Shown here: positions 13,961 through 62,575 of the stretch, one piece after another
Position numbering within the stretch: the stretch's first letter is position 1
How the letters are laid out: each line of letters begins with the position of its first letter
NCBI RefSeq assembly: GCF_035084215.1
Contig: NC_090347.1
Span: 45,818,001 to 45,882,000, forward strand
Direction of reading: 5' to 3'
Length of the DNA stretch: 64,000 bases
DNA from: Heptranchias perlo
Lineage: Eukaryota
Made by a program: the position numbers and the translations under genes
The notes under the pieces: generated by a model
The model's input: only the letters and a program-made list of their open reading frames with translations
What the model was told of the DNA's origin: nothing
Database searches by the model: none

Positions 13961-16900
13961 GTAAGGATTAAGTTCACGACAATCACCTTGGCTTTAATTT
14001 CTAAAGTTATATTGTTACCCTTTTAGCACTTGGTCTGTTCCAATGTATGATGTCATAAATTGAACAGATAATGTTGGAGCAAAGCTGAGGTAGAACCTAT
14101 GACCTCATTAATGGATTAGTCCACTGAGAATAGGGAGGGCCACGTATTTTGGGATAAAATTATAACTGTATATTGATAGAATGCTTAACGCTGAAGTGAG
14201 GAATTGGCCAGACAGTAATGTAGTGTGTGATGGTGAGAAGATCGTGATGGGAATGGTACATGTGTTCTATAAAATTCAGAATGGGTGAGTAAAGGTCATG
14301 TGAAAACCAAAACTGAGGTGGTGGCACTGAATGGAGGACGATCTGAATGGAAGAACGACATTGGGCGAAGGGTGTCTGTGATACTTTAAATAAGAAACTT
14401 GTACTAAAATGGTTCACCACCTTCTACTACATATTCTAAATCATATGGGGGGCTGTTAGTAAAAATTCATGGCAGGATGACTAATAGTTTGTTGAGGACC
14501 CAACCAGCCTGAGGACCAGTCTCAGGTAGCTGCAGCAGACAGACACATAGTGGTGGGCCATGGATCTGTGCCTGATTCCCCCAAATCGTGAGCTCCTGAT
14601 TTCAATCATGTCACAGTGGGCAGATACCAAGTGTAGACCAGGCTTTCACAGGAGAAAGGGAGGGGAAAATAGGACCAATAATCCCATTCAGATGTTGTAT
14701 TTTAATAGGACCGTTTCACTTGCTCTATGGACTCTGGGAAAACTCTACCTCCCTTGCCACCTTTTTGGAGAGATGAACGATAGAACAAGCACCGAATCCC
14801 AACCTGACCAAATCCCATAGTCAGCAGGCCACGAGTGGAGGCTCAAGGACACATGGAGCAGCAAGTCTGCTGAAGGCCACAAGTGAGCAGGAGACAAAGC
14901 TGTAAATGGCCTGAGGCCTTATTCTGAGCACCACTGAACACCATGGTCCTCCCTAGCTTCAGCCTAGTCAGTTATGATCTCGCTCTCGAGTGGATTACAG
15001 GTTTGTAATTCACTCACTGTCATCTTTATGTATTATACAGTGAGTGTAGCAATTCCTGATGTGAAGTAAATCATTCATTCAGTAGACTCTGTCATGTCAT
15101 CCCCGCTACACCAAAGGGATGGAGTGTAGTGATAGTTCTAACAACTGCCATCAGCACGGAATTACAATCAAAACTGAATGAAATCTCTCAAATGTTCATG
15201 GCGTATATATTTATTATTAAAAACACCCCTCAATGTTCAGTTTTGGTTTAGAATCCCCTTAAAGGGCTTGAGTTTTTGTTCTATGCCGGGTCACTAGGTT
15301 GAGTATTTCACAGCCAAGGAGATTTCCATATCTGACCAGATGGAAAAGGGGTGAGGGGGTCAGGGTGATGGAGGGATCCCAGCCTCTGTTAGCTGATCAA
15401 AGTGTAGTTAGACTGTAACTCTGACCCTTCCAGCCTCTCACAAGGAGGAGGATGCAGGGTAACCAATGGCATTAGTTGGGATTTTTATTTATTCCTTTTT
15501 TTGCCGATCCCTTGTTACCCCGAGGGTGTTAAGAGTGTGACAGTCACATGTAGGCCAGACCAGATAAGGGGAGGGCGGTAGGTTTTCTCCTTTGAACAAC
15601 ATTAGTGAACCAGTTGGGTTTAACAACATTTTGGCACCTGCCTCCAGACCACAAATGACCAGATTTATGGAATTCCCTTGTCATGGTGGGATTTGAACTC
15701 ATGACCTCTGGGTTGATAGCCCAGGACCAGAATCAACAGGACCAGAATCACCCATTACGAAGGTTAGAGGGGGGAAAAACTGTTAATTAAAAAGGCTACA
15801 ATTTCTAAACAAGCATTATTAAATGTGTGTAGGTGAGGTTCTGACGATGGCTCAAGGAGTAACTGCAGTGCTGGCCTGGTACTGACCCACACACACCAGC
15901 AGGTTTTATCCCCGGTCTGTGCTGAGTGGGCTGGTTTGAACCAGGACAGTAGTCGACCTGCTGCAATTGGTCTCCGTGTCTCAGAGCCAGGGAGGAGAAA
16001 AGAGCAGCCAGGGCTCCAACTCTGGATCATTATTCAGGGAAGTGTGGCTGTTGAGTGAAAGGGTTCAGCTATGCAGCCCCCTATAGTTAAATGGCCTACC
16101 ACCACCCCCTGTCTAGATTCACACATGAAGAACGGCCACTCCGATAAGGTGCCTGAGAATACCAGCACCTGTACAACTGTCCCCCAGCATCTTCAAGTGA
16201 TAAAAAGAGGATTAATGTGAATGGGTCTGGCTTGCTCCTAGGTGGAATGAAATTCAGCATACAAAGGGTTAATCTAAAGACCTCAGTAACTCTTCTGTCT
16301 TCAAGCTTCAGTTTGGCAAAACTTGAACCTGAAAATCTGAAAACAATTTTCTCGTCTGTTTTCAGTCTTGGCTGCGATCACTGACTATATTATAGCACTG
16401 ATGCTATAAAACTTGCCCTTCAGTGTGAAGCCACGGACACTGTAGCAGCAGTCGGCTGGTACTTGTTTGTACAGGATACTGACGTGGAAATTGGCCTGGG
16501 TTTTTTCCACAACTAAACAAGTGGAAATTTCCAGTGGAATTCTATCTTTGACTAGGCGATGTTGTTCAAGTCAGGTGGAGAGGAGTGAGGATGTGTCCTT
16601 ATTCTATATCACAAAATCAGATTAAATTCCTTCACCCAATAATGTGTGTTGAAAAGTTTGGACAGGGGCCTACCCCAAGGATGGGCAGAGAGGGAGAGGT
16701 GCAGGGTCAAAGCCTAGCTCTGCCGAGTTCCCAATCTCAGCTACTGTAGGGAGGGAGCCCATTGCCAGGCTGCTGCTCCGTGCCAAACAATCCATCCCCC
16801 GGCCCCAGCAACATGTTCAAAAGTGCAAGCTGGTTTCCCACCTAACCTCATGGCACAAGAGGGTACCTAACCCCGCAAGGGCAGAGCAGGGGAGGAAACC

Positions 16901-18393: not shown

Positions 18394-20786
18394 AGCAGAA
18401 GCAGAAGACCCCGGCCAAGGCCTCCGTACTTGGACTGAACTCAGTCTGAATGTAGTCTGGAACAATATGAATTCCATTCATAGAGCAAATTAAGCTTACG
18501 TTCTATAGTGAACCCAGAATACTTCAAATGAATTCCATGACTGTGCCTGACTGCACACATCCACCTCTGCACGGAGAAACACGTCTGAATGTCATCTTTC
18601 TTTCAGGAGCAAGCACAAGTCAATGGCCCACTTGTTGTAGACCCAGGTGGACATTAGTGGAGCTGCATAGAGCTGAGCTTGTGTCGTGTGTTTAAAGGGT
18701 ACTATAATTTGTATCGTCTCCTGAAGGACCCTCCTCTGGGTTTGGAGAAATGTTTGTTTGTTTAGTTTATTTTTAAACAGTAATGATGAATTAGGAGGAA
18801 ATTATTGGCAGTTCACAGTAGAGCAGATCTGCTTATCCTGATTGATCAATATGGTGGATGTCAATTGGCTCTGCAGAGTAGACTATTGCTACCTCCCCGT
18901 CTGCCCTCTCAGGTGGACGTAAAAGATCCCACAGCACTATTTCGAAAAAGAACAGGGGAGTTCTCCTTGGTGTCCTGCCCAATATTTATCCCTCAATCAA
19001 CATCATTAAAACATTATCTGGTCATCCTCACGTTGCTGTTTGTGGGATCTTGCTGTGCACAAATTGGCTGCCATGTTTCCTACATTACGACAGTGACTGC
19101 ACTTCAAAAGTACTTAATTGGCTGTAAAAGTGCTTTGGGTTGTCCCGAGGTTGTGAAAAGCGTTGTATAAATGCAGGTCTTTTCTCAACTGGAAACTCTA
19201 CTGTCCCCTTTAAGGGGCAGTTTTCTCCCCTGTTCTAAAGGGACTGACTCTTGCTGGGGTCAGTGCTATGGGTCCTTCAGAAACCCACTCAAGCAGACAA
19301 TTTTCATGCATGAGCCCAGATGGCATTAGCAGGCTATTTGACCATGATCTACATTACAGCTAAACATCATCCTGTCCATACATAAACACATCCACAAGGG
19401 TTGCTTGATGGTGACCAGGAGCAGGAAGCCCAGCTGATGTACACCCCCCCCCACTTTCCAGAGACACTGAGGCCAATGGCAGCACCCCAACTATGGCGCT
19501 AGCTGAAAACCACTAACTCAGCACAGACCAGGCACTAAACTTGGGACAGTCTGGTTTGTATGGCTTAGAATCACAGCACACATTTACCAAAAACCATCGG
19601 ACAACTACATTGCTGGTTGCTGACTGAGCTGTCTATTTACCAGGAAGTTTTGGTGAATTCTTTAGAGGGGTATCTTCTCATGCCTCTCTACACTCTAGGA
19701 CATTTATCATGCTTGGCAAAGGAGATTATGGAAGAACACAACTGGTGATGCAGGTGTCATGGTGTCACCGGTTGTTGTTGCTACTACAAACTTATACTTT
19801 TTATTTAATGTTCTAACCACCAGCTAAGATTGCAAATGATAAAGGTTTGCATTGCAAAAGACTGGACAGAGATACCACAGTCTGCTGACAGAACAAATTA
19901 AACTAGATACAGCCATTAACTCATCAAGCCTTTCCCTTATGACCGATGCACATTCTACCCTATCATGGACTCTACCCCACATATTTAATCCCTTCTATGC
20001 CCCATGTACACTCTACCCTAGATTCTATCTACCCATTTAATCCCCTTTCATAGCCCATGTATACTCCACCTTATTATGGACTCTACCCATCCATTTACTC
20101 TCCTGTAAGAAAGTTCAGTATAATATTCCCTGATTCCCAAAGGGAACTGAGCAAAACTCCAGAATAGTGAATCATTCCTGATCTCCATTATTGTACCCTG
20201 GCCTGTAATCCTCCAACCTTCTTCCTCTTCCCTCCCGGGTCAGCCCATTGGTGTAGCAGTTATCGTGTCCCATGGAGCATTTGATTATCTCAGTCTACAA
20301 TCTCCAATACAGTCCCTGACTAGCTATCTATGTGCCTCCTCTTTGAAGTGATTAATCGTCACACCATAAGTTGGTTGGGAGATGTTCCACCTATTTGTTG
20401 CTCTGTGGATATCTTCGAATTTGTAGTCTCACAATTTTACTGTAGTGTCCCCTAGTTCTGCAGCCCAGCCTAAATCAAATAGCTAACTTCTGCTATGCTT
20501 TGAGTGAGTTAATTTGGAGAGGCTTGTCCTGGACCAAGCACTCCTCAATCCCTAAAATGTCAGCTTCACAACTTAAAAAAAATTAGAAGACATTATTCAA
20601 TACAATCAGAGATTGGGCTTCAATTTTCACAGCAGCCACAGCTGGGTGTTGGGTGCTGAACCCGACTGGCCAATTCTGTTCTACCAGCTGACCCAAACAG
20701 GACGCGCTGATCAATGCAACGGAAAATATCTCTCACCGTGTTGAGTAAAATGATACCGGCGAGAGCAGGTAACACGTTGATCTTAC

Positions 20787-21557
20787 CCTCTGCAGCCCCA
20801 TGTTATTGAGCCAGATGCGCTCAACGTATCTCCCAAATGACCGGAAGGCGTTGTCGGGGATGGTCCTGATGGAGTTGTAGGAAAGGTTTAGCTCTTCCAC
20901 CACCCTCAGTTTGCTCAGTGCCGCTGCCGGGTAGGTGTTCAGCATGTTCTTGTCCAGGTAAAGGGTTGCTAAATTCTCCACATCATCCAGGGCGCCGGGC
21001 AGAATGGATGTCATCCCATTACCAGTCAGATGGAGCCATCTCAGTTCCTTAGCACCTGCGAAGGTCCCTGGTTTGACCTGGTTCATCCTGTTGTTGGTCA
21101 GCTGCAGGAGAAACAAGCTCTTCAATGGTGTTAGAAGACCTTTGGCGAGCTCGCTGATTCTGTTGTTATCCAGGTAGAGGTAGGTTAATTGTGAAAGATC
21201 CTGGAAGGCCCCGGGCCTGATGTTACTAATTTCATTATTGGACAAGTATAGATACACGAGCTTCCTCAGTCCACGGAAAGCGTTGGGTGAAATCTCTCGA
21301 ATGTGACAATCCTGAAGATGTAGGGAAATTATGCTCTTCATGGAGCTGAATCCATTGGAAGGGAGGATGGGGTAGTTGTTCTGCTGCAGACTGAGGAGCC
21401 GGACTTTGTTGGGAACTCTTGGGATCTTCTTCAGCCCCTTGTTCTCGCAGACTACATGGAGCAGGTCCCCCAGACAGTGACAGCCGGTAGGGCAGCGGGG
21501 GGCTGCTGTCACCATGGCCAAGAGCGGAGCGACCAAGAGCCAGCTGAGTTTCTGCAT
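20787..21557 (-). CDS. CHAD: Chondroadherin coding exon 1 (signal peptide, LRRNT, LRRs), 771 nt
   Basis: ATG at 21557 (MQKLSWLLVAPLLAMVTA signal peptide), class IV SLRP cysteine cluster CPTGCHCLGDLLHVVC (Cx3CxCx8C), tandem LRRs, and CHAD-typical GALDDVENLA...LSKLRVVEEL...IPDNAFRSFGRY. Ends NNMGLQR|gtaaga (phase 0 donor). The ORF-track extensions on both sides are 5' UTR/promoter and intron. Confidence 0.96.
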
Positions 21558-21649
21558 TGTCCAGGCTGGAGAGTGTGAGGAGTTGAGTGAGTGTCTGACG
21601 GAGCTTGAATCGTGCAGCCCCAAACTAACACCACAACCTGCAGCACCGC

Positions 21650-21700
21650 TATTTATAACCTGCAAGCCTCACCTTCGGGGAAGAACCTCAGTGGGCGGGG
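21650..21700 (-). promoter_or_regulatory. CHAD core promoter: TATA box (TATAAATA, 21657-21650) and GC box (GGGCGGGG, 21693-21700)
   Basis: Canonical TATA about 95 nt upstream of the ATG, with an Sp1-type box about 40 nt further upstream. Confidence 0.7.
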
Positions 21701-26144: not shown

Positions 26145-29100
26145 ATGGCAGACAGAATGGGTGGAGCGGTAAGAGAGCATGGCCCAAGGTTCTCCGTCAG
26201 CGCACTGGAAGCCTTAGTGGAGGGAGTGCAGGAACGGAGAGCCATCCTATGGTGGCAGGAGACCGTCCAGACATCAGCTGCGGAGGCAGTGGGAGGAAGT
26301 GGCCGTGGAGGGGAATGGCACCACGCACGTGGATACAGTGCCGGAAAATGTTCAATGATTTGACACCAGTGGTCAAGGTGAGTAAATGTAAGTGTCGAGT
26401 GGCACATCCTACCAACTGCACCACTGCTCCACGCCCCCTCACCCACCCACCAACAAACACAGCCCATCGGTAAGCAAAGCTGCACTTCAGATGCTGCATC
26501 TCACCCTTACATAGTAGCACACTTGCAATCCACCCACCCGCCACTCACAGGTCACACACACTGGCAGCTATTCAACCATGACAGGCACATCACCCAAACA
26601 TGTTGCAGGACACTCACTGACACACTTCCCTCTGTCTTGCAGGAGAAGGTGGCGCATAACAGCCGGCAGACCGAAAGACCACAGAGAGGACAAAATTAGT
26701 CTCCACTTGGAGAAGCAAGGATTAATCAGGGATAGTCAACATGGCTTTGTCAAGGGAAGATCATGTCTGACTAATTTGATTGAATTTTTTGAGGGGGTGA
26801 CTAGGCGTGTGGATGAGGGTAACGCAGTGGATGTGGTATACATGGATTTCAGTAAGGCCTTCGATAAAGTCCCCCACAGGAGACTGGTCAAGAAGGTACG
26901 AGCCCATGGAATCCAGGGTGCCTTGGCACTTTGGATACAAAACTGGCTTAGTGGCAGAAGGCAGAGGGTGATGGTCGAAGGTTGTTTTTGTGACTGGAAG
27001 CCTGTGGCCAGTGGGGTACCACAGGGATCGGTGCTGGGTCCCTTGCTGTTTGTGGTCTACATTAATGACTTGGATATGAATGTAAAAGGTATGATCAGTA
27101 AGTTCGCTGATGATACAAAAATTGGTAGGGTGGTAAATAGCGAGGAGGATAGCCTCAGTCTGCAGGACGATATAGATGGGTTGGTCAGATGGGCGGAACA
27201 GTGGCAAATGGAATTTAACCCGGAAAAGTGCGAGGTGATGCACTTTGGAGGGACTAACAAGGCAAGGGAATACACAATGAATGGGAGGACCCTAGGCAAG
27301 ACAGAGGGTCAGAGGGATCTTGGTGTGCAAGTTCACAGATCCCTGAAGGCGGCGGAACAGGTAGATAAGGTGGTAAAGAAGGCATATGGGATACTTGCCT
27401 TTATTAGCCGAGGCATAGAATATAAGAGCAAGGAGGTTATGATGGAGCTGTATAAAACACTGGTTAGGCCACAGCTGGAGTACTGTGTGCAGTTCTGGTC
27501 GCCACACTACAGGAAGGATGTGATCGCTTTGGAGAGGGTGCAGAGGAGATTCACCAGGATGTTACCAGGGCTGGAGCGCTTCAGCTATGAAGAGAGACTG
27601 GGAAGATTGGGTTTGTTTTCCTTGGAGCAGAGGAGGCTGAGGGGGGACATGATTGAGGTGTACAAAATTATGAGGGGCACAGATAGGATGGATACTAAGG
27701 AGCTTTTTCCCTTCGTTGAGGGTTCTATAACAAGGGGACATAGATTCAAGGTAAAAGGCGGGAGGTTTAGAAGGGATTTGAGAAAGAACTTTTTCACCCA
27801 GCGGGTGGTTGGAGTCTGGAACTCACTGCCTGAAAGGGTTGTGGAGGCAGGAACCCTCACAACATTCAAGAAGCATTTGGATGAGCACTTGAAATGCCAT
27901 AGCATACAAGGCTACGGACCAAATGCTGGAATATGGGATTAGAGTAGACAGGGCTGATGGCCGGCGCGGACACGATGGGCCGAAGGGCCTCTCTCCGTGC
28001 TGTATAACTCTATGACTCTATGACTATGAGGACAGGCACGCCTACACGTCCTCACTCCCTTGGAGGAGACCGTGCTACGCATCCTTGGATGGACCGTCGC
28101 TGCGGCTGTGGAGGACCCAATGAAGGGTGTCTCTGCATACCTAATCCTCCTTCTCGTTTCCCACAACTCCCTCATCATCTCTTCTGACTCATGTGCTGCA
28201 GATGGTGTCAGTAGTACTGTCCGAGGAGGAGAAGGAGGGGGACACCGATAACGAAACCACACTGTCACTCGATCTGACACTCACCTCCACCAGCTCAGAG
28301 TACATCCTCTAGAGGCTCGGTTAGAGGAGGGATCGGCACGTGGTGAGACACTGGGCACAAGTGCGCAGGAGCTGGGGCGGGGGGAACTGATGGTACAGGT
28401 GCCAGCTCACTGGAGGGCGAGGTCACACAATGGTTCTGCAGCTAAGGCGTCAGACGATGACTTCGATGGGCCAGGCTACAGAAGACGGCTGATGGGCGTA
28501 CACCACCAAACGCTTTGTGTACTGGAAAGCCTGCCAGAAAGCCTGCGCACAATGTCAAGGGGCATGGAGGAGTCCAACTCGAACTTGGCACAGGGCTTCG
28601 CGAAGAGCTTGGAGCCCATCCTTACCCACATGGAACGGATGGTCACCTCAATCAGCGCACCTGTGGAACCCACCATGATGGCGGATGTTGCGGCCTCCAT
28701 TGCAACACAAACCAACGTCATCAAAGGTCTGCAAGCTTCAGTTGAAGCTCAGACTGCTGCAATGACAGCTCAGACTGCTGCTTTGGAAGCGCAGATTGCT
28801 GCTATCGTGGCTCTGGGGACCACTGTGGAATGGGGCTTCCAGGGCATCACAGCACTCCAGCAATCCGTTCTCCAGCTGATTACATGTGTGTCGTGAGGGC
28901 CCCCCACCGTGTGAGTGGCAGTGGCGCCAAGGCAATCCGGATGACAGCATTCAGGCTCCCACCCCTGCCATTCCACCAGTGCTCTTGCTGTTGCCTGTCA
29001 GTCAGCCAGGCCAGACTCTTGCAGCCCAGGCCGAAATGGTGCAGTCTGAAGCCAGGCCCTCCTGGCCCAGAGGTGGTCGAGGCCATCTGCACGCTCCTCC

Positions 29101-29188
29101 ATTGATGGCCAGTACCCTTCCACCACTCATGCTCCAGCCACTAGGGATGCACCTGGTAGGAGCACTAGGAAAGGAAAAGGCACACTAA
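26145..29188 (+). pseudogene. Harbinger Myb/SANT-like DNA-binding protein gene; spliced, decayed and CR1-interrupted
   Basis: PRFSVSALEALVEGVQERRAIL...WEEVA...RTWIQCRKMFNDL|gtgagt (26377); ttgcag|EKVAHN (26643); resumes at 28028 (QARLHVLTPLEE); coiled-coil-like part at 28390-28896. Confidence 0.75.
26693..28027 (+). mobile_element. Young 5'-truncated CR1 LINE with an uninterrupted RT frame
   Basis: SQHGFVKGRSCLTNL, YMDFSKAFDKVPH, GVPQGSVLGP, KFADDTK with no stops to 27942; (CTATGA)-type tail; candidate TSD GAGGACA at 26686-26692 and 28028-28034. Confidence 0.93.
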
Positions 29189-29418
29189 TGACAGGCACTG
29201 AGGGAATGCACAAGAGTGAATAGTGTAATGTGCTACTACAGTTAATGTGTTACGTTATAAATTTGGATTTGAAGTCGCAGTTGGTGGTGATTTTTATTGA
29301 TGTGATGAGCTGCGGGAGGAGGCAATGTGTAATCACATGGAGAACGATGAGATGGTCATGAGGGAGAGGACAGGTGGGGAGTGTAGGACTGTTGTTGACT
29401 TGGGAGGTGTCGTTGAGG

Positions 29419-30609
29419 TTAGTGATATCGCTCGCAAATAAGGTGAGCACGCAGAGCCCTGGCAGACAGGACTCGTGCACTTCGTTGCCTCCCTGCGTCT
29501 TCCTCCACTTCCTCCTCCATTTCCTTCTCTTCCTCCTCAGCCTCTTCTTCCTCTGCCACTTCCTCCTTTTCCTCTTCATCCTCCTCCTCCACTTCTTCCT
29601 CATCTTCCTCTTCCTCCCCCTCTGCCTCTTGCTCAGGTTCTCGCCTGATAGGCGGTGGCAAGGGCTGTTCCCTCATAAGGGTGAGGTTGTGAAGTGTGCA
29701 GCACACCACGATGAATCTTGACACCCCCTCGGCGGAGAACTGCAGGGCTCCGCCAGAACGGTCCAGGCAGCAGAAGCGCTGGTTTAGCAGGCCTATGGTG
29801 TGCTCGACGATGTTCTTTGTGGTTGCATGGCTCTCGTTGTACGCCTGCTCTGCACACGTGCTTGACCGGGGCGATGAGCCACCTCATGAGGGGATAACCC
29901 TTGTCACCCAGTAGCCAGCCTTTGACTTGCCAGGCCAGTGCAAAGATATTTGGGATGTCGTCGTGACTGCTGTCAGGATAGTGGGCATTGACCTCCAGGA
30001 TGCGGTGTGTGCGGTCGCACACCAGCGGCAGATTGAGGGAGTGGAACCCCTTTCTGTTTGTAAAGATGGCTGAGTTGAGATGTAGAGCACACATGGCTAT
30101 ATGCGTGCAGTCAATAGCACCCTGCTCCATGGGGAAGCCTGCAATGTGCTCGCTTGTTCTGTTTGTCTCTGTCAAGAGGGAACGTGATGAACCTGTTGCG
30201 CAGCTCATACAGAACCTCTGTGACTTCCCTTATGCAGCAGTGCACTGCAAACTGTGAGATGCTGCACATATCGCCAGCAGAGGCCCGAAAGGATCCAGAG
30301 CCGTGAAAGTTCATGTTTACCTTGACAGCCACAGACAGCCCCGCCCTGAGGCTCCAGTTGTGGCTGCAGCAGTTGACAAATCTCCGTCATAACCTCTTTG
30401 GTGAACCGCAGTCTTCAGATGCACTGATCTTCGCTCATGTTGAGGTAAGAGTATTGTTCCCTCAAGGCCCTCATGGGATATGACCTCCTGCTCAGTGCCC
30501 TGCGTCTCCTCCTCCTCCCTCTCCTTGCAGCTTGACCTGCTCTGCGTGGCCATTCTGCATGCTCCCAGTCGTGTTCTATGCCCAGTGGGAGACCTAGCAG
30601 ACCACCCAT
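29419..30609 (-). pseudogene. Harbinger (HARBI1-like) DDE transposase, frameshifted
   Basis: Fragments YLNMSEDQCI*RLRFTKE, GAIDCTHI, NRKGFHSLN, YPDSSHD, WLLGDKGYP, VCCTLHNL, then a Glu-rich tail. Confidence 0.9.
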
Positions 30610-31737: not shown

Positions 31738-31860
31738 ATTCATATTCAAAATGTGGAATGCACTCTCTTTTCATTGATTTTGTGCAATATTGACCTGAAG
31801 GAAAGAAAGCCAATGTTACAACTGACACTAGTCAACCCCCCCTCTACACGAATATATCGT

Positions 31861-32629
31861 TTTTTTTATTTGTTCATGGGATGTGGGCGTCGCTGGCGAG
31901 GCCGGCATTTATTGCCCATCCCTAATTGCCCTCGAGAAGGTGGTGGTGAGCCGCCTTCTTGAACCGCTGCAGTCCGTGTGGTGAAGGTTCTCCCACAGTG
32001 CTGTTAGGAAGGGAGTTCCAGGATTTTGACCCAGCGACAATGAAGGAACGGCGATATATTTCCAAGTTGGGCTGGTGTGTGACTTGGAGGGGAACGTGCA
32101 GGTGGTGTTGTCCCAATGTACCTGCTGCCCTTGTCCTTCTAGGTGGTAGAGGTCGCGGGTTTGGGAGGTGCTGTCAAAGAAGCTGCAGTGCATCCTGTGG
32201 ATGGTGCACACTGCAGCCACGGTGCGCCGGTGGTGAAGGGAGTGAATGTTTAGGGTGGTGGATGGGGTGCCAATCAAGTGGGCTGCTTTGTCCTGGATGG
32301 TGTCGAGCTTCTTGAGTGTTGTTGGAGCTGCACTCATCCAGGCAAGTGGAGAGTATTCCATCACACTCCTGACTTGTGCCTTGTAGATGGTGGAAAGGCT
32401 TTGGGGAGTCAGGAGGTGAGTCACTCGCCACAGAATACCCAGCCTCTGACCTGCTCTTGTAGCCACAGTATTTATGCGGCTAGTCCAGTTAAGTTTCTGG
32501 TCAATGGTGACCCCCAGGATGTTGATGGTGGGTGATTTGGCGATGGTAATGCCGTTGAATGTCAAGGGGAGGTGGTTAGACTCTCTCTTGCTGGAGATGG
32601 TCATTGCCTGGCACTTGTCTGGTGCGAAT
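31861..32629 (-). mobile_element. 5'-truncated copy of the same APE-RT LINE family
   Basis: Near-identical to 34351-35135, including the 3' UTR and A-tail. Confidence 0.9.
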
Positions 32630-34350
32630 ATGAGTTATGAACATGTTATTAGGCAGGCAAGTACAGCAACATAGCAAGGTCCTACAAAGAGCAGTGCGAT
32701 GAAGAGCCAGTTAATCTGTTTTTGATGGTGTCGTTCGATGGAGGAATGTTGGGCAAACCCTCTTGCCCCTTTTCGAATAGTGTCATGGGATCTGTAACAT
32801 CCATCTGAACAGCTAGATTTAAATCTGAAAGATGGCACTGTTAGGTTTTCAGGGTTATATGTATGATTCTTGGGCTAGATATCATTGACCACTGCTGTAG
32901 GTGGACCTTGTGTATCCTTTGAACTGGAATGTGCCTTTACTTGGCCAATATCCAGGTGAACGTAACAACTCAGGGATCAATCAAATAACTCTGATCACTA
33001 TACTCTGACCTACTGGAATACATTATGCATTGTCATGTGACCTCCATATCTTTGGTCGGCAGAGTAAATAGACACTCTAACAGATCAAGGCTCCATCTAT
33101 GAACTGACAGATGAATTTGTTTAACACTGAACAGGTATCTGTGCAGTACAAACATTTATAAACTTTATTATTCTCAAATGGCCAAAACAACAAAGATACT
33201 TCTCCTGCTCTACTTCACAACATAAAATTGGTCTTTGAAACTTGATCACTCACTTCTTCTGTGATGAATCATTCCCACGGAGCCTCCGTCCAGCCAGCTA
33301 CAGACTGAGTGCCGAGCTGAGCTAAAGTAGCCAGATGATGGCAGCTGATGATCAGAAGGTCCATTGTCCATCAAAGGGACTACAAAGAAATGTTGGCCCC
33401 ATTCCTCTCACAGGCCGAACCCATGTCTTCGGCCCAGATATAGCTGTCAATCGAAACCGCTACCCCATGGTGACAGTAACCGAGGATGTTCGGAATTGAG
33501 CCTTGATTCATTGCTCTGCCCCACATACTTGGAATGGATTATTGGATGGTCCCCATCCAGTTATAGTGTGAACAATCCAACCATGCACACCAAGGATGGC
33601 CAGAACTACACACGTCCCTGGCTTTCCCCTGTGGTGTGAATATTAGCCAGACCATAATATGTATCCCACGCAACTGGAAAAAACAGCGAGCAGTGACCGT
33701 AACCCTACATGTGTACATTGGCCTACAATAAATAATCCAATACAATAATGTAACAAAGACAAAAACGTTCCAATAATGAAACACTCCCTCAGAAACTGAC
33801 TGATCTGCGGAGACAGGAAGGATATTGTTTCTTTTCAGTGCTTTGATCTAAGTTTGTATTGGAAATTAGATGAACTGCTGCAAACACCGGAAAGGCACAG
33901 AATAATTTATGCAGCCAAATTGCAGCAAAGGAATGTGGATACTGAATCCATATGTGCATGTATTAATGGGGTTGCCAGTTGATATTAATGAGCTGAATTT
34001 TTTTGAAGGTTCATAGTGCAGGAAACCATAAAGGAACAAGGAGGAGGGGAGAAAATGAGGCCAATCAGGAGGCAATGATTAAGGTTTTAAAAGCCTGTAA
34101 ATTATAGAAGGAAGGGAGGACTGAGGGAGGTGAGGAGTTTTGAAGTCCTGCTGAAGTAGGAAGCAGTGAAATAAGTTTTGATTTTAACACAGTGAGGATG
34201 CAGGGAGGAGGGAAGAGATTTGGATTTAGGTGCACTATATGGAGAAGTTCTTTACCATTTACCAAGCTGTTCAGACCCTGTACTGTCGGTCTTGTGGAGC
34301 AGATGGATTTGCTTGGTGATTGTTTGCTTAGGTCAAATAAGATTGCTTCT

Positions 34351-37300
34351 TTTTTTTTTATTCGTTCACGGGATGTGGGCGTCGCTGGCAAGGCCGGCAT
34401 TTATTGCCCATCCCTAATTGCCCTTGAGAAGGTGGTGGTGAGCCGCCTTCTTGAACCGCTGCAGTCCGTGTGGTGACGGTTCTCCCACAGTGCTGTTAGG
34501 AAGGGAGTTCCAGGATTTTGACCCAGCGACGATGAAGGAACGGCGATATATTTCCAAGTCGGGATGGTGTGTGACTTGGAGGGGAACGTGCAGGTGGTGT
34601 TGTTCCCATGCGCCTGCTGCTCTTGTCCTTTTAGGTGGTAGAGGTCGCGGGTTTGGGAGGTGCTGTCGAAGAAGCCTTGACGAGTTGCTGCAGTGCATCC
34701 TGTGGATTGTGCACACTGCAGCCACAGTGCGCCGGTGGTGAAGGGAGTGGATGTTTAGGGTGGTGGATGGGGTGCCAATCAAGTGGGCTGCTTTATCTTG
34801 GATGGTGTCGAGCTTCTTGAGTGTTGTTGGAGCTGCACTCATCCAGGCAAGTGGAGAGTATTCCATCACACTCCTGACTTGTGCCTTGTGGATGGTGGAA
34901 AGGCTTTGGGGAGTCAGGAGGTGAGTCACTCGCCGCAGAATACCCAGCCTCTGACCTGCTCTCGTAGCCACAGTATTTATATGGCTGGTCCAGTTAAGTT
35001 TCTGGTCAATGGTGACCCCCAGGATGTTGATGGTGGGGGATTCGGTGATGGTAATGCCGTTGAATGTCAAGGGGAGGTGGTTAGACTCTCTCTTGTTGGA
35101 GATGGTCATTGCCTGGCACTTATCTGGCGCGAATGTTACTTGCCACTTATGAGCCCAAGCCTGGATGTTGTCCAGGTCTTGCTGCATGCAGGCTCGGACT
35201 GCTTCATTATCTGAGGGGTTGCGAATGGAACTGAACACTGTGCAGTCATCAGCGAACATCCCCATTTCTGACCTTATGATGGTCATTGATGAAGCAGCTG
35301 AAGATGGTTGGACCTAGGACACTGCCCTGAGGAACTCCTGCAGCAATGCCCAGGGGCTGAGATGATTGGCCTCCAACAACCACTACCATCTTCCTTTGTG
35401 CTCGGTATGACTCCAGCCACTGGAGAGTTTTCCCCCTGATTCCCATTGACTTCAATTTTACTAGGGCTCCTTGGTGCCACACTCGGTCAAATGCTGCCTT
35501 GATATCAAGGGCAGTCACTCTCACCTCACCTCTGGAATTCAGCTCTTTTGTCCATGTTTGGACCAAGGCTGTAATGAGGTCTGGAGCCGAGTGGTCCTGG
35601 CAGAACCCAAACTGAGCATCGGTGAGCAGGTTATTGGTGAGTAAGTGCCGCTTGATAGCACTGTCGACGACACCTTCCATCACTTTGCTGATGATTGAGA
35701 GTAGACTGATGGGGCGGTAATTGGCCGGATTGGATTTGTCCTGCTTTTTGTGGACAGGACATACCTGGGCAATTTTCCACATTGTCGGGTAGATGCCAGT
35801 GTTGTAGCTGTACTGGAACAGCTTGGCTAGAGGCGCAGCTAGTTCTGGAGCACAAGTCTTCAGCACTACAGCTGGGATGTTGTCGGGGCCCATAGCCTTT
35901 GCTGTATCCAGTGCACTCAGCCGTTTCTTGATATCACGTGGAGTGAATCGAATTGGCCGAAGACTGGCTTCCGTGATGGTGGGGATATCGGGAGGAGGCT
36001 GAGATGGATCATCCACTCGGCACTTCTGGCTGAAGATGGTTGCAAACGCTTCAGCCTTGTCTTTTGCACTCACGTGCTGGACTCCGCCATCATTGAGGCT
36101 GGGGATGTTTACAGAGCCTCCTCCTCCCGTTAGTTGTTTAATTGTCCACCACCATTCACGACTGGATGTGGCAGGACTGCAGAGCTTTGATCTGATCCAT
36201 CAGTTGTGGAATCGCTTAGCTCTGTCTATAGCATGTTGCTTCCGCTGTTTAGCATGCATGTCGTCCTGAGTTGTAGCTTCACCAGGTTGGCACCTCATTT
36301 TTAGGTACACCTGGTGCTGCTCCTGGCATGCTCTTCTACACTCCTCATTGAACCAGGGTTGATCCCCTGGCTTGTTGGTAATGGTAGAGTGAGGAATATG
36401 CCAGGCCATGAGGTTACAGATTGTGCTGGAATACAATTCTGCTGCTGCTGATGGCCCACAGCGCCTCATGGATGCCCAGTTTTGAGCTGCTAGATCTGTT
36501 CTGAATCTATCCCATTTAGCACGGTGGTAGTGCCACACAACACGTTGGATGGTGTCCTCAGTGCGAAGACGGGACTTCATCTCCACGATGACTCTGCGGT
36601 GGTCACTCCTACCAATACTGTCATGGACAGATGCATTTGCGACAGGTAGATTGGTGAGGACGAGGTCAAGTAAGTTTTTCCCTCACCACCTGCCGCAGGC
36701 CCAGTCTGGCAGCTATGTTCTTCAGGACTCGGCCAGCTCGGTCAGTAGTGGTGCTACCGAGCCACTCTTGGTGATGGACATTGAAGTCCCCCACCCAGAG
36801 TACATTCTGTGCCCTTGATACCCTCAGTGCTTCCTCCAAGTGGTGTTCAACATGGAGGAGGACTGATTCATCAGCTGAGGGAGGACGGTAGGTGGTAATC
36901 AGCAGGAGGTTTCCTTGCCCATGTTTGACCTGATGCCATGAGATTTCATGGGGTCCAGAGTCAATGTTGAGGACTCCCAGGGCCGCTCCCTCCTGACTGT
37001 ATATCACTGTACCGCCACCTCTGGTGGGTCTGTCCTGCCGGTGGGACAGGACATACCCAGGGATGGTGATGGAAGAGTCTGGGACGTTGGCTGAAAGGTA
37101 TGATTCTGTGAGTATGGCTATGTCAGGCTGTTGCTTGACTAGTCTGTGGGACAGCTCTCCCAATTTTGGCACAAGTCCCCAGATGTTAGTCAGGAGGACC
37201 TTGCAGGGTCGACTGGGCTTGGTGTTTTGCCGTTGTCGTGTCCGGTGCCTTGTGGTCCGATGCCGGGTGGTCCGTCCGGTTTTATTCTTATTATGACTTT

Positions 37301-37668
37301 TCGTAGCGAGATTTTACAACTGAGTGGTTTGCTTGGCCATTTCAGAGGGTGATTAAGAATCAACCAACATTGCTGTGGGTCTGGAGTCACATATAGGCCA
37401 GACCGGGTAAGGACGGCAGGTTTCCTTCCCTGAAGGACATTAGTGAACCAGATGGGTTTTTACGACAATCCGGTAGTTTCATGGCCATCATTGCTGATAC
37501 TAGTATTTTAATTCCAGATTTTTATTTAATTAATTTAATTTAATTTATTAATTAATTGAATTTAAATTCGCCAGCTGCCGTGGCAGGATTTGAGCTCATG
37601 ACTCTGGATTTTAGTCCAGGCCTCTGGATTACTAGCCCAGTAACATAACCACTATGCTACCATACCCG
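34351..37668 (-). mobile_element. Near full-length APE-RT LINE (CR1 group, Zenon-like) with a tRNA-derived 5' head
   Basis: APE (NIWGL, LTESYL, GDFNVHH) and RT (YRPISLLS, ALDIKAAFDRVWH, GVPQGSVLGP, FADD) in frameshifted pieces 37172-34414; poly(A) at 34351-34359; A box TAGCATAGTGG and B-box-like GAGCTCAAATCC at 37585-37660; GCTTCT flanks both ends (34345-34350, 37669-37674). Confidence 0.9.
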
Positions 37669-37974
37669 GCTTCTCTTTGGCACCATAGGACTGAACCTGA
37701 CCCTCACTCCTTGCCCTGACCGCAAGTGTGGATTCACGGGTGTGCAGCCTTGAACTAGCAGACCATGACGGGGGAGGGGGGGTGGGGGCGGGATTCCACA
37801 AGCCACACTAGCAGGGATCACAGGTCGGAGATAGACCTGCAGCATTTTAACCCCATTCTTTGACTTGTGCTGCCTGTGAGCGTAACCTCACTGGGAGCGA
37901 ATGATTGTGAAATTACCCTACAGGGCATGGTATGACTGTAATTGCTGTCTGTACACAATGGCCTGGTTACACAA

Positions 37975-53548: not shown

Positions 53549-54290
53549 AATAGCTAAAGAGCATCAAGTGACACCTTATCTGTTTTTGTGCCTGACTTCC
53601 TGTTGATTGTATTGCTTAGTTTCTATTTCCTGATCGTAAATGTTCAAAACCCAATGATGACAGAACTCGCAGTCTATTAGCAGATACAGCAACCCCCACC
53701 GCCGCCATGATTGCAGTTCCTGTTGTGCTCCTGCCTCCCCTCGCCCAAGGTAATCTCCCCAGTTGAAAGCTCAGTGTTGGCAAGGTCCAGCTCCTCTGTT
53801 CTGAGGGGCTTGTGCAGGAGGGTCTGTTTCACTTGGCTCTGTAACAAGGCCGTAACAGCAAAGCGTTAGGGACAGTTTTATAATGTGGATTCTCACTAAC
53901 CAGGAACTGAATTGAGACTGGCCAAATTACTTTCACCCAGGACCCTAACAGCCAGAAACTAGACGAGGCTTTCACATGAACAGTCTGGAGTTACATCCAT
54001 GTCCTGTAAGTGAAGGGACAAAATGGTAACTCACTGCACATCAAGTCCAGATACCTACTGATCATTCTTAATTGCTCTGAGCTACTTTTCTTTCTACGGT
54101 ATTTGTTCTTGAGATGTGGCGATTTGGTCATGTTTGTTGCCCAGAGAAGATGGTGGTGGACCTTCCTCTTGAACTGCTGGAGTCCAGGAGGTGATGGTGT
54201 TAGTTAGGGAATTCCAGGATATTGACGATGAAGGAACGGCGATATATGTCCAAGTGTTGCCAGAACCTTGTTGCTGTTGTTCTTCTTGGT

Positions 54291-54496
54291 GTGGAGATGC
54301 CGGTGATGGACTGGGGTGTACAGATGTAAGGAATCTTACAACACCAGGTTATAGTCCAACAGTTTTATTTGAAAATCACAAGCTTTCGGAGGCTTTCTCC
54401 TTCGTCAGGTGAGTGACGAAAGAGAAAGCCTCCAAAAGCTTGTGATTTTCAAATAAAACTGTTGGACTATAACCTGGTGTTGTAAGATTCCTTACA
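54291..54496 (-). mobile_element. Miniature fold-back PLE insertion (3' end only)
   Basis: PLE 3' tail (54291-54324) plus 83-bp inverted arms 54325-54407 and 54414-54496 with a 6-nt spacer. TSD GTTCTTCTTGGT at 54279-54290 and 54497-54508. Confidence 0.92.
54376..54412 (-). ncRNA. Minimal hammerhead ribozyme motif in the mini-PLE
   Basis: TCAC-CTGACGA-A-GGAGAAAGCCTCC-GAAA-GCTT-GTGA. The plus-strand mirror copy has lost core bases (gTGACGA, AAAA). Confidence 0.82.
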
Positions 54497-55699
54497 GTTC
54501 TTCTTGGTGGTAGAGGTCACAGGGGAGAGAGGTGTTATTGAAGTAACCTTGGTGAGTTGCTGAAGTGCATCCTGTAGATCGTACTTACTGCAGCCAAAGT
54601 GTGCCGTTGGTGGGGGAGGTGCATAGTGAGTTCAGTGAACTGAACAAGTGAAATGCTTTGTCCTGGATGATGTTGAGCTTCTTGAGTGTTGTTGCAGCTG
54701 CACTCATCCAGGTGAGTGGAGAGTATTCTATCACACTCCTAACTTGAGCCATGTAGGTGGCTTTGAGGGGTCAGGAGATGAGCCACTCATCACAGAGAAC
54801 CCAGATTCTGCCCTGCTCTTGCAGTCACGATGTAGTTATGGATGGTTCAGTTCAGTTTCTGGCCAATAGTGACCCACCAGGCTGGCATTATCAGTGGAGT
54901 TGTGAATGGAACTGAGCACTGGAATTGTCAGCGAACAGACCCACTTCTGACTTTATGACGGAGAAAAGATCATTAATGAACCAACTGAAGATGGTTGGGC
55001 CTAGGACGCTGCCCTGAGGAACCCGTGCAGTGATGTCCTGGGGCTGAAGTGAGTAGCCTTTGATAACCACAACCATCTTCCATTGCGTCAGGTGTAACTC
55101 CAATCACTGGAGGGTTTTCACCTTTGACACCTATTGACCTCAGTTTTGCTAGGGCTCCTTGGCCTGATACTCGGTCGAATGCTGCCTTGATGCCAATGGC
55201 AGCTACTTGAGGATTTGGAATTCAAATGCTATCAGGAGCCTGAACTCCAAACCTCTCTCAGTAATGTTTAAGAATGAGTAATAGTTCCATCAGTTTGCAA
55301 TGCAGATCAAGATCTAATTTTTGGCAATAAATCCTTACTTCTGCGGGCATTGTTGCTGAGTTCTCGGCCCCTTGTCAACCAACCCACCCAAAGTCTGATC
55401 ATCCAAGTCATTTAGCCAGACTGCTAGACCTAGTCCTCACCTTAAATCCTAACTCTTAAACTTCTCATCACTAGGCTCTCACTGCCACTATCTTCATATC
55501 TACCTCTTGCAGAATATCTTGCAACAAATTGTACTCTGATGCTAGTGCCAAGCAAAAAGCGACTCGTTTACAATCGTAGGGAAGGTCTTTAAGAATTCTT
55601 TGCAACTTTTCCCTTGTCCAGCTGCTTTTTTCAATCTGCAGACTCTTCCAGGGACGTGACTGATGTGACTCTGGCTTCATGTTTCAATCTCACTCTTCC

Positions 55700-62078: not shown

Positions 62079-62575
62079 TTTTTTTATTATTTATTCTCAG
62101 GATGTGGGCGTCGCTGGCAAGGCCAGCATTTATTGCCCATCCCTAATTGCCCTCGAGAAGGTGGTGGTGAGCCGCCGCCTTGAACCGCTGCAGTCCGTGT
62201 GGTGAAGGTTCTCCCACAGTGCTGTTAGGAAGGGAGTTCCAGGATTTTGACCCAGCGACAATGAAGGAACGGCGATATATTTCCAAGTCGGGATGGTGTG
62301 TGACTTGGAGGGGAACGTGCAGGTGGTGTTGTTCCCATGTGCCTGCTGTTCTTGTCCTTCTAGGTGGTAGAGGTCGCGGGTTTGGGAGGTGCTGTCGAAG
62401 AAGCCTTGGCGAGTTGCTGCAGTGCATCCTGTGGATGGTACACACTGCAGCCACTGTGCCCCGGTGGTGAAGGGAGTGAATGTTTAGGGTGGTGGATGAG
62501 GTGCCGATCAAGTGGGCTGCTTTGTCCTGGATGGTGTTGAGCTTCTTGAGTGTTGTTGGAGCTGCACTCACCCAC
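62079..62575 (-). mobile_element. 3'-end fragment of the same LINE family
   Basis: ORF MSAAPTTLKKLNTIQDKAAHLIG...HHHLLEGN and matching 3' UTR. Confidence 0.9.

Follow-up and report, generated by a model that had tools for sequence, protein, structure and literature searches.

The 64,000-nt stretch of the Heptranchias perlo genome analyzed here (the window; contig NC_090347.1, positions 45,818,001 to 45,882,000) carries, between positions 34345 and 37674, a protein-coding long interspersed nuclear element (LINE) of the Zenon family that opens with a tRNA-like head. All coordinates are positions within the window, and the element sits on its minus strand. The unit (37667-34350) consists of this head, an AT-rich linker, a body of 150 to 190 nt, one open reading frame (ORF) for an apurinic endonuclease (APE) and a reverse transcriptase (RT), a short 3' untranslated region (UTR), and a tail of ten A's. 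In the following lines, T4 stands for a run of four T's.

37669..37674 (minus): target site duplication (TSD), 5' copy, AGAAGC; an extra C at 37668 precedes the head
37586..37667 (minus): tRNA-Gln-like head with two tandem anticodon-arm hairpins (37624-37640 and 37604-37619)
37649-37659 (minus): A box, TAGCATAGTGG
37586-37597 (minus): B-box-like sequence, GAGCTCAAATCC, in which one substitution marks a damaged allele
37500..37575 (minus): AT-rich linker of variable length, with no T4
37361..37470 (minus): conserved structured body, from the minimum-free-energy (MFE) fold (z -1.65) and pair counts
37443-37452 with 37380-37388 (minus): helix P1, surrounding hairpin P2
37405-37430 (minus): hairpin P2, inside P1
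37364-37379 (minus): small hairpin after P1/P2
37345..37360 (minus): predicted end-to-end duplex, 5' strand; this copy has two broken pairs
37320..37345 (minus): hairpin with a 7-nt loop of anticodon format, CUAGCAA in the family and CAAGCAA (37329-37335) in this copy
37302..37319 (minus): variable spacer, including an in-frame TAA (37314-37316)
37302-37307 (minus): conserved GCT AC(G/A), the predicted codon mimic and first codon
34414..37313 (minus): single APE-RT frame, 973 codons in intact copies
~36587-37199 (minus): APE domain
36578-36580 (minus): first Met codon
~35056-35917 (minus): RT domain
34410..34425 (minus): 3' strand of the predicted end-to-end duplex, covering the stop codon
34350..34413 (minus): 3' UTR, with AATAAA at 34400-34405 and the A10 tail at 34350-34359
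34345..34350 (minus): TSD, 3' copy

The Pfam domains Exo_endo_phos and RVT_1 were both detected. The frame is broken by a 14-nt deletion near 36681, a stop codon at 36200-36202, and an 8-nt deletion near 35282; this copy is a dead element, 97% identical to an intact one. The frame begins at nt 351 of the element, and the ~350 nt before it therefore leave no room for an ORF1, as an initial sequence-only reading of this locus had noted; the published Zenons have no ORF1 either (PMC13343379). Rfam returned no ribozyme family match (an HDV-like 5' ribozyme was looked for), no 2A motif (NPGP) was found N-terminal to the APE domain, and a structure search of the PDB gave matches solely to L1 ORF2p and R2.

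The tRNA-like head is, with near certainty, an integral part of the element. A genome search baited with the head and the ORF start gave 4021 candidates, 40 of which were scored, and all 39 non-self loci were fetched. The same poly(A) 3' end was reached, at 95-97% identity, in 38 of these 39 other head-bearing copies (36 of them uninterrupted, one internally deleted, and one with an insertion), the remaining copy ending at nt 898. Their flanks are unrelated, and the 5' border is sharp, with a GGG start in 29 of the 40 copies (three G's in 28, two in 5, and four in 1). It is this continuity from head to 3' end, rather than the TSD, that makes the element one unit. AGAAGC is indeed present at both ends of the window copy, as had been noticed; however, a match of at least 6 nt occurs in 0.5% of 1406 mismatched flank pairs and is weak evidence by itself, and TSDs of at least 5 nt were seen in just 8 of 38 copies versus 2.6% of control pairs. 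The base preceding the head was C in 16 and G in 1 of 29 complete copies; the extra base may be untemplated or templated. Directly 5' of the element, two loci (L050 and L063) carry the first bases of the head as a short inverted repeat of them, as if the cDNA end had folded back.

Short and often absent TSDs would also fit a chance juxtaposition of a short interspersed element (SINE) and a LINE, or a non-autonomous chimera mobilized in trans by a conventional LINE that has an ORF1 and an AUG, and the first search, baited with the head, was biased to headed copies. For this reason, a second sample of 40 segments of 10 kb each was taken at round coordinates. The Zenon family occupies 19.4 of these 400 kb, that is, about 5% of this genome, and all four copies that include the ORF start continue into this 5' part, body or head, which is complete in two of them and 5'-truncated in the other two. 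A pattern built from older copies gave 281 matches, 30 of which were fetched: approximately 7 join the body to APE-RT at 70-78% identity, three of the older copies (L192, L207, and L213) extend back to the head, and most others are short deletion forms. With the same junction in 38 of 39 copies, in the arbitrary sample, in the old subfamily, and in seven published consensuses, with purifying selection on the frame (see below), and with no copy seen to have a different 5' end, either form of this explanation is largely refuted and has only a very remote chance of being correct. The sequence-only reading had named copies lacking the head, or a consensus with a conventional ORF1 and ATG, as grounds for giving up its proposal; neither turned up, and its view that head, linker, body, and APE-RT moved together can be accepted. 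The 970- to 973-codon frame is intact in 9 of 38 trimmed copies.

Zenon elements without ORF1 and with a poly(A) tail have been described in five elasmobranchs (CarCar, HypSab, RhiTyp, ScyCan, and SquAca) by Stuart et al. 2026 (PMC13343379). Their consensuses were compared by eye over the first 400 nt. The body differs from that of SquAca_Zenon-1 at ~4 positions in 147 nt, and because of such near identity to the beginnings of named Zenon consensuses, the window element is, as judged from its sequence, a CR1-group elasmobranch Zenon and not a member of Ingi/Vingi. All seven shark and ray consensuses open with the head and body (three of them with a perfect B box, GGTTCGAATCC), so that the constancy of the head extends from the young and old subfamilies to five species, whereas all three non-elasmobranch Zenons (two from hagfish and one from coelacanth) are headless and have a T4 within the first 400 nt (PMC13343379). 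A quick RT tree, which contained no named Zenon references, placed the element apart from the canonical CR1 (31%) and L2 (30%) of the window; homologous fragments in shark proteins are 78-82% identical, and the next relatives are at ~40%. Sharks and rays diverged roughly 250-300 million years ago, and a head common to both is therefore old. The tRNA-like 5' ends that the sequence-only reading had mentioned for Ingi/Vingi elements could not be confirmed for autonomous ones: PMC5786205 describes SINEs with Vingi-derived parts rather than autonomous Vingi elements with a tRNA head. The window holds five further 5'-truncated Zenon copies, 70-95% identical and all on the minus strand (31860-32629, 62080-62574, 45498-45717, 2656-2900, and 54137-55202), of which the one at 54-55 kb is of the old subfamily.

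The anticodon stem of the head (CTGGA/TCCAG) and its T arm (GAGTTCAAATC) match host tRNA-Gln genes (129 pattern matches, with 5 of 6 loci called tRNA-Gln), and the anticodon arm is duplicated in the head of this Zenon lineage. The Rfam tRNA match to the head is below threshold (18.7 bits, E 0.3-0.4), and no tRNA was called by ARAGORN anywhere in the window. At ~2.5-8.9 Mb of contig G000:C38, tRNA-Gln(TTG)-type matches form arrays with a spacing of ~3.11 kb.

Zenon RNA is probably made by RNA polymerase III (Pol III). Of 40 copies, 35 have an intact A box and 32 an intact B box, which in them reads GAGTTCAAATCC; both boxes are kept in the published consensuses of five species (PMC13343379), and the 5' start of the element lies one base before tRNA position +1. 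The depletion of TTTT that the sequence-only reading had suggested checking is there: the 2,920 nt of the sense strand contain no T4 and 5 runs of three T's (T3) versus 17 expected. The sense strand is T4-free in 30 of 38 copies; in the other eight, the T4 lies in the tail (four), in an insertion (one), in a mis-trimmed flank (one), or inside the element (two). In base shuffles, the absence of T4 has a P value of 0.005-0.016. CR1, L2, and Penelope elements of the same genome (the CR1 control copies being fetched loci) have 1.7-5.5 T4 per kb versus 0.02 in Zenon. Among 80 related LINE loci from metagenomes, the 73 with a match of at least 1.2 kb all contain T4 (lowest, 0.76 per kb; median, 6.1), and their lowest T3 ratio is 0.46 versus 0.29 in Zenon. 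Phe accounts for 2.0% of the Zenon protein, a share within the bottom 1% of 116 homologues. The 73 loci, many of which lack 5' ends and which come from 2 of 64 parts scanned, showed neither a B box nor a tRNA head upstream; ARAGORN, run on 55 of the 80, called one minus-strand tRNA-Ile.

Several observations weigh against transcription by Pol III. The T-poor strand (19%) leads one to expect just 3.3-4.4 T4, copies of one family are a single data point, and in synonymous-codon shuffles the absence of T4 has a P value of only 0.05-0.13, although such shuffling retains the TTC-over-TTT bias (16:3) and still leaves T3 at 5 versus 12.5. No fixed terminator was found in the tail: T4 followed by AA occurs in just 5 of 58 tails in the young subfamily and in 8 of 36 in the old one versus 1 and 0 in controls, a difference that tail slippage could also produce. 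The AATAAA of the 3' UTR is compatible with Pol II as well. Known Pol III SINEs span 100-700 bp (PMC10886601), and LINEs are normally transcribed by Pol II (PMC5786205, PMC10886601).

The T-poor strand and the usual Pol II origin of LINEs favor an unlikely but serious alternative, in which the head is the captured 5' end of a SINE on a capped and polyadenylated Pol II transcript, made from an internal promoter or by read-through, and the frame is reached by reinitiation downstream of the short upstream ORFs or from a near-cognate codon. AATAAA precedes the A-tail, there are in-frame upstream ORFs of 33 codons and of AUG GCC UAG, and an ACG with a purine at -3 is found at codon 4 in the young subfamily. 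Against it stand the A and B boxes kept in five species and the 5' border at tRNA +1, a loss of T3 and T4 beyond that in 73 of 73 relatives, and the lack of a clear cap trace (a G is found at -1 in just 1 of 29 copies). Moreover, nine upstream AUGs would impede scanning, and the ACG was rejected as a universal start because four of five species, and the old subfamily too, have ACA or AAA in its place.

The missing AUG, first noticed in the window copy, proved to be family-wide. Of 40 copies, 38 have an in-frame TAA upstream of the frame, and ATG is absent ahead of the NIWG motif in all but two, both exceptions being changes of ACG to ATG. In nine of nine intact copies, the first Met is codon 250, downstream of the APE domain. 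Selection was assessed in 36 copies from variants common to at least three of them, with CpG and TpA contexts excluded: codons 1-247 hold 7 synonymous and no replacement variants (sites, 501:1519; P ~6e-5), so that the AUG-less part is, on this pattern of shared variants, under purifying selection. The position of the first Met together with these counts implies that the endonuclease would be made without an AUG of its own. However, the signal is uneven, with 5 replacement and 2 synonymous shared variants in the RT domain; private changes in the AUG-less part are near neutral (APE omega, 0.82). An ATG within GAATGAAA of other species is out of the APE frame (in HypSab, the frame was followed by eye as far as the NI motif) and reads ATA here; it was rejected as a start.

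Ahead of the frame, the MFE fold of one young copy (z -1.65) has a long helix, P1, around P2, followed by a small hairpin and then by a final one whose loop is 7 nt long. Pair 37:109 of P1 is U-A in 38 of 38 young copies; among 29 short copies, it is A-U in 22 and U-A in 4. In contigs of another organism, the two positions switch as well, in 82% and 87% of the depth, which may reflect the same ancestral subfamily; contigs of other organisms carry no information on starts, strand, or level and have no bearing on expression. Pair 68:76 of P2 is G-C in 21, A-U in 14, and G-U in 3 of 38 copies, and at pair 62:80 the whale shark has G-C and the stingray G-U (by eye; PMC13343379). A GGCA in the 3' segment of the head could pair with a TGCC in the P2 loop in all species compared by eye, with an alternative partner 4 nt after P2.

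The loop of the last hairpin reads CU-AGC-AA, a layout that has the format of a tRNA anticodon loop. Its UAGC complements a GCUA across a spacer of 11-12 nt that holds the stops and an indel, and the conserved frame opens with GCT AC(A/G). Each of the 5 copies scanned has the combination of an anticodon loop and its complement once in its 3.3 kb, at the ORF start; among shuffled leaders, 0.14% have it (P 0.0014; 3.2% if any 7-nt loop is allowed). GCTA is kept in seven and the loop in six of the seven published consensuses, in which the spacer varies (PMC13343379). Start codons of type 6 internal ribosome entry sites (IRESs) mostly read GCU, and ACA in type 6f (PMC12221177); intergenic region (IGR) IRESs in non-LTR elements have been raised as a possibility (PMC3894237). 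Nevertheless, the case has a number of weak points: the loop-codon pairing is just 4 bp and shows no compensatory change, the motif was defined post hoc, after it had been seen, a pair of the stem reads A.C in all 38 young copies, and two Squalus consensuses have the GCT in another frame than the basic peptide that follows. Further, Rfam gave no IRES match up to E 10, and the type 6 parts PKII, PKIII, SLIV, SLV, and L1.1 were not found in the leader, which does have nested helices. A translation start through a tRNA-mimicking hairpin is a possibility that falls slightly short of an even chance. At CTAG sites of the copies (L031-L069), T is replaced by A, C, or G far above the rate at other TA sites (mean, 14%, and up to 44% of copies) regardless of subfamily, which points to a context-dependent mutation process in this genome; it affects the loop U of the anticodon-like hairpin.

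The lack of covariation in the loop-codon pair leaves room for a Pol III RNA that is translated with no tRNA mimicry, by read-through of the UAG in AUG GCC UAG CAA, by a hand-back of terminating ribosomes to the ORF start through a duplex of the RNA ends, or from an unrelated IRES and a near-cognate codon; its chances appear rather poor. In three published consensuses, AUG GCC UAG and the basic N-terminal peptide share a frame in which that UAG is the only stop (by eye), and the duplex brings the stop codon of the ORF beside the start hairpin. In the window copy, two stops lie between this in-frame AUG, which is located just upstream, and the APE frame; the second of them, TAA, is a block to read-through in 38 of 40 young copies, including 9 with an intact frame. 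Among older copies, the AUG itself reads GUG in 24 of 30 and in 19 of 29, the whale shark consensus has a 1-nt shift within the spacer, and recycling of ribosomes requires a prior round of initiation.

The duplex in question is formed by the 16 nt directly before the last hairpin and 16 nt across the stop codon, 11 pairs being perfect; it is the best of 982 windows (P 0.004 versus shuffled tails). Against it, the old subfamily has four mismatches where the young one has none, and two pairs are broken in 4 of 35 young copies, including the window copy. The difference between the subfamilies could be due to selection or to correction by template switching.

Short copies composed of the head, the body, and the last 75-110 nt are common. 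Their 28 junctions, the visible range of which is restricted by the search baits, fall into 13 lengths, and some of the copies retain the first codons of the ORF; at the 5' and 3' diagnostic sites, a copy mostly agrees with one subfamily. Bridging of body and tail was also found in contigs of three other organisms. The deletion adjoins the 16-bp duplex that joins the leader and the stop-codon region. All this fits deletions that arose from the LINE repeatedly, close to the base of the loop, as for Persaeus (PMC6740152). The sequence-only reading had proposed that the element is the parent of an internally deleted SINE, with a segment at 15480-15730 as the example. SINE-like deletion derivatives do exist; however, that segment is not a child of this subfamily, and what had been taken for its terminal A-tail is the start of a Zenon tail:

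15475..15740 (minus): decayed copy of an older related SINE family, with a single-arm tRNA head, a related body, and the start of a Zenon tail

This segment shares the B-box region and the body with Zenon (73% over 94 nt) and has a different linker; the SINE family to which it belongs normally carries the Zenon tail.

Taken together, the window holds a dead Zenon copy, and for the full-length form, which has the tRNA-Gln head, transcription as a whole by Pol III and an AUG-less start from an anticodon-mimicking leader can be proposed with doubt and confidence in about equal measure. Pol III would start at tRNA +1 of the head, read the 3.3 kb because there is no terminator inside, and stop at a T-run in the flank. 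The uncapped RNA would load ribosomes through the body; the loop UAGC would pair with GCUA after the 11- to 12-nt spacer, and decoding would begin at or beside GCU ACR. The 16-bp duplex could close the RNA end to end over the stop codon, and the protein would copy the RNA from its A-tail by target-primed reverse transcription. A jump across the base of the loop would then yield complete SINEs in one step. In its full form, that of an elasmobranch autonomous 3.3-kb Pol III mRNA with a factorless tRNA-mimicking IRES, closed by the duplex and turned into a finished SINE by one template jump, the proposal is tentative and more likely to fail in some part than to hold in all.

Three other features were noted in the window:

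20733-21668 (minus): open frame that encodes a signal peptide and leucine-rich repeats and runs up to a likely splice site; we take it to be a chondroadherin-type host exon
41876-44401: two nearly intact RT/GIY-YIG frames in opposite orientation, presumably of the Penelope type, as judged by motif
28252-30229 (minus): fragments that we assume to represent a PIF/Harbinger transposase and its partner ORF

In the usual division of labor, LINEs are Pol II transcribed, capped, and coding, and SINEs are Pol III transcribed and non-coding; an abundant element that combines both and has persisted across sharks and rays would breach it. If the proposal is true, Pol III can produce a functional 3.3-kb mRNA, there is a cellular IRES similar to type 6, and SINEs can arise from LINEs directly, in one step. 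The AUG-less start of ORF2 proteins of non-LTR elements can be tested on a compact leader of 190 nt in which the base pairs are specified and, since intact Zenon copies exist, each proposed step is open to assay. The Zenon family has already been published; the main text of that paper contains no match for 'tRNA' or 'polymerase III', no mention of the head, the loss of T4, the missing AUG, or the leader structure was found in its passages on Zenon (PMC13343379), and no other account of these traits was found in the literature searched. Nor was a description of a tRNA-headed autonomous LINE found in the literature searched, which did not extend to Repbase, subscription papers, or bioRxiv supplements.

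In its general layout, the element resembles both the elasmobranch Zenons (PMC13343379), which are likewise ~3.3 kb long, lack ORF1, and have a poly(A) tail, and the lepidopteran Zenon (PMC6740152), which likewise has a single ORF, 3.1-3.7 kb, and poly(A) and has repeatedly and independently given rise to internal-deletion derivatives. One of these, the short internally deleted element Persaeus, is reported to have no tRNA homology or Pol III promoter (PMC6740152), whereas the shark deletion product is a complete tRNA-headed SINE. SINE2 elements, bipartite-LINE SINEs included, share with the shark Zenon the tRNA head with A and B boxes, the body, the LINE-type tail, and the absence of internal T4 (PMC5786205, PMC7245038, PMC5499810). 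However, tRNA-derived SINEs are non-coding and 100-700 bp long, whereas the shark Zenon is coding and 3.3 kb long; of the forms described here, only the short derivatives are non-coding and below ~700 bp, as a SINE2 should be. In Kojima's model (PMC5786205, PMC7245038, PMC5499810), the head is acquired after the deletion, whereas in the shark Zenon the autonomous coding element already has it. With the type 6 IRESs of dicistrovirus IGRs (PMC12221177), the leader shares a structured segment of ~150-190 nt directly before a non-AUG frame and, in resemblance to their PKI, a predicted hairpin whose loop could pair with the codon-side sequence across a spacer that varies, with GCU/ACA at the start. 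It differs from them in having the PKI-like part alone, and the strand at the position of PKII pairs best with the 3' end of the element.

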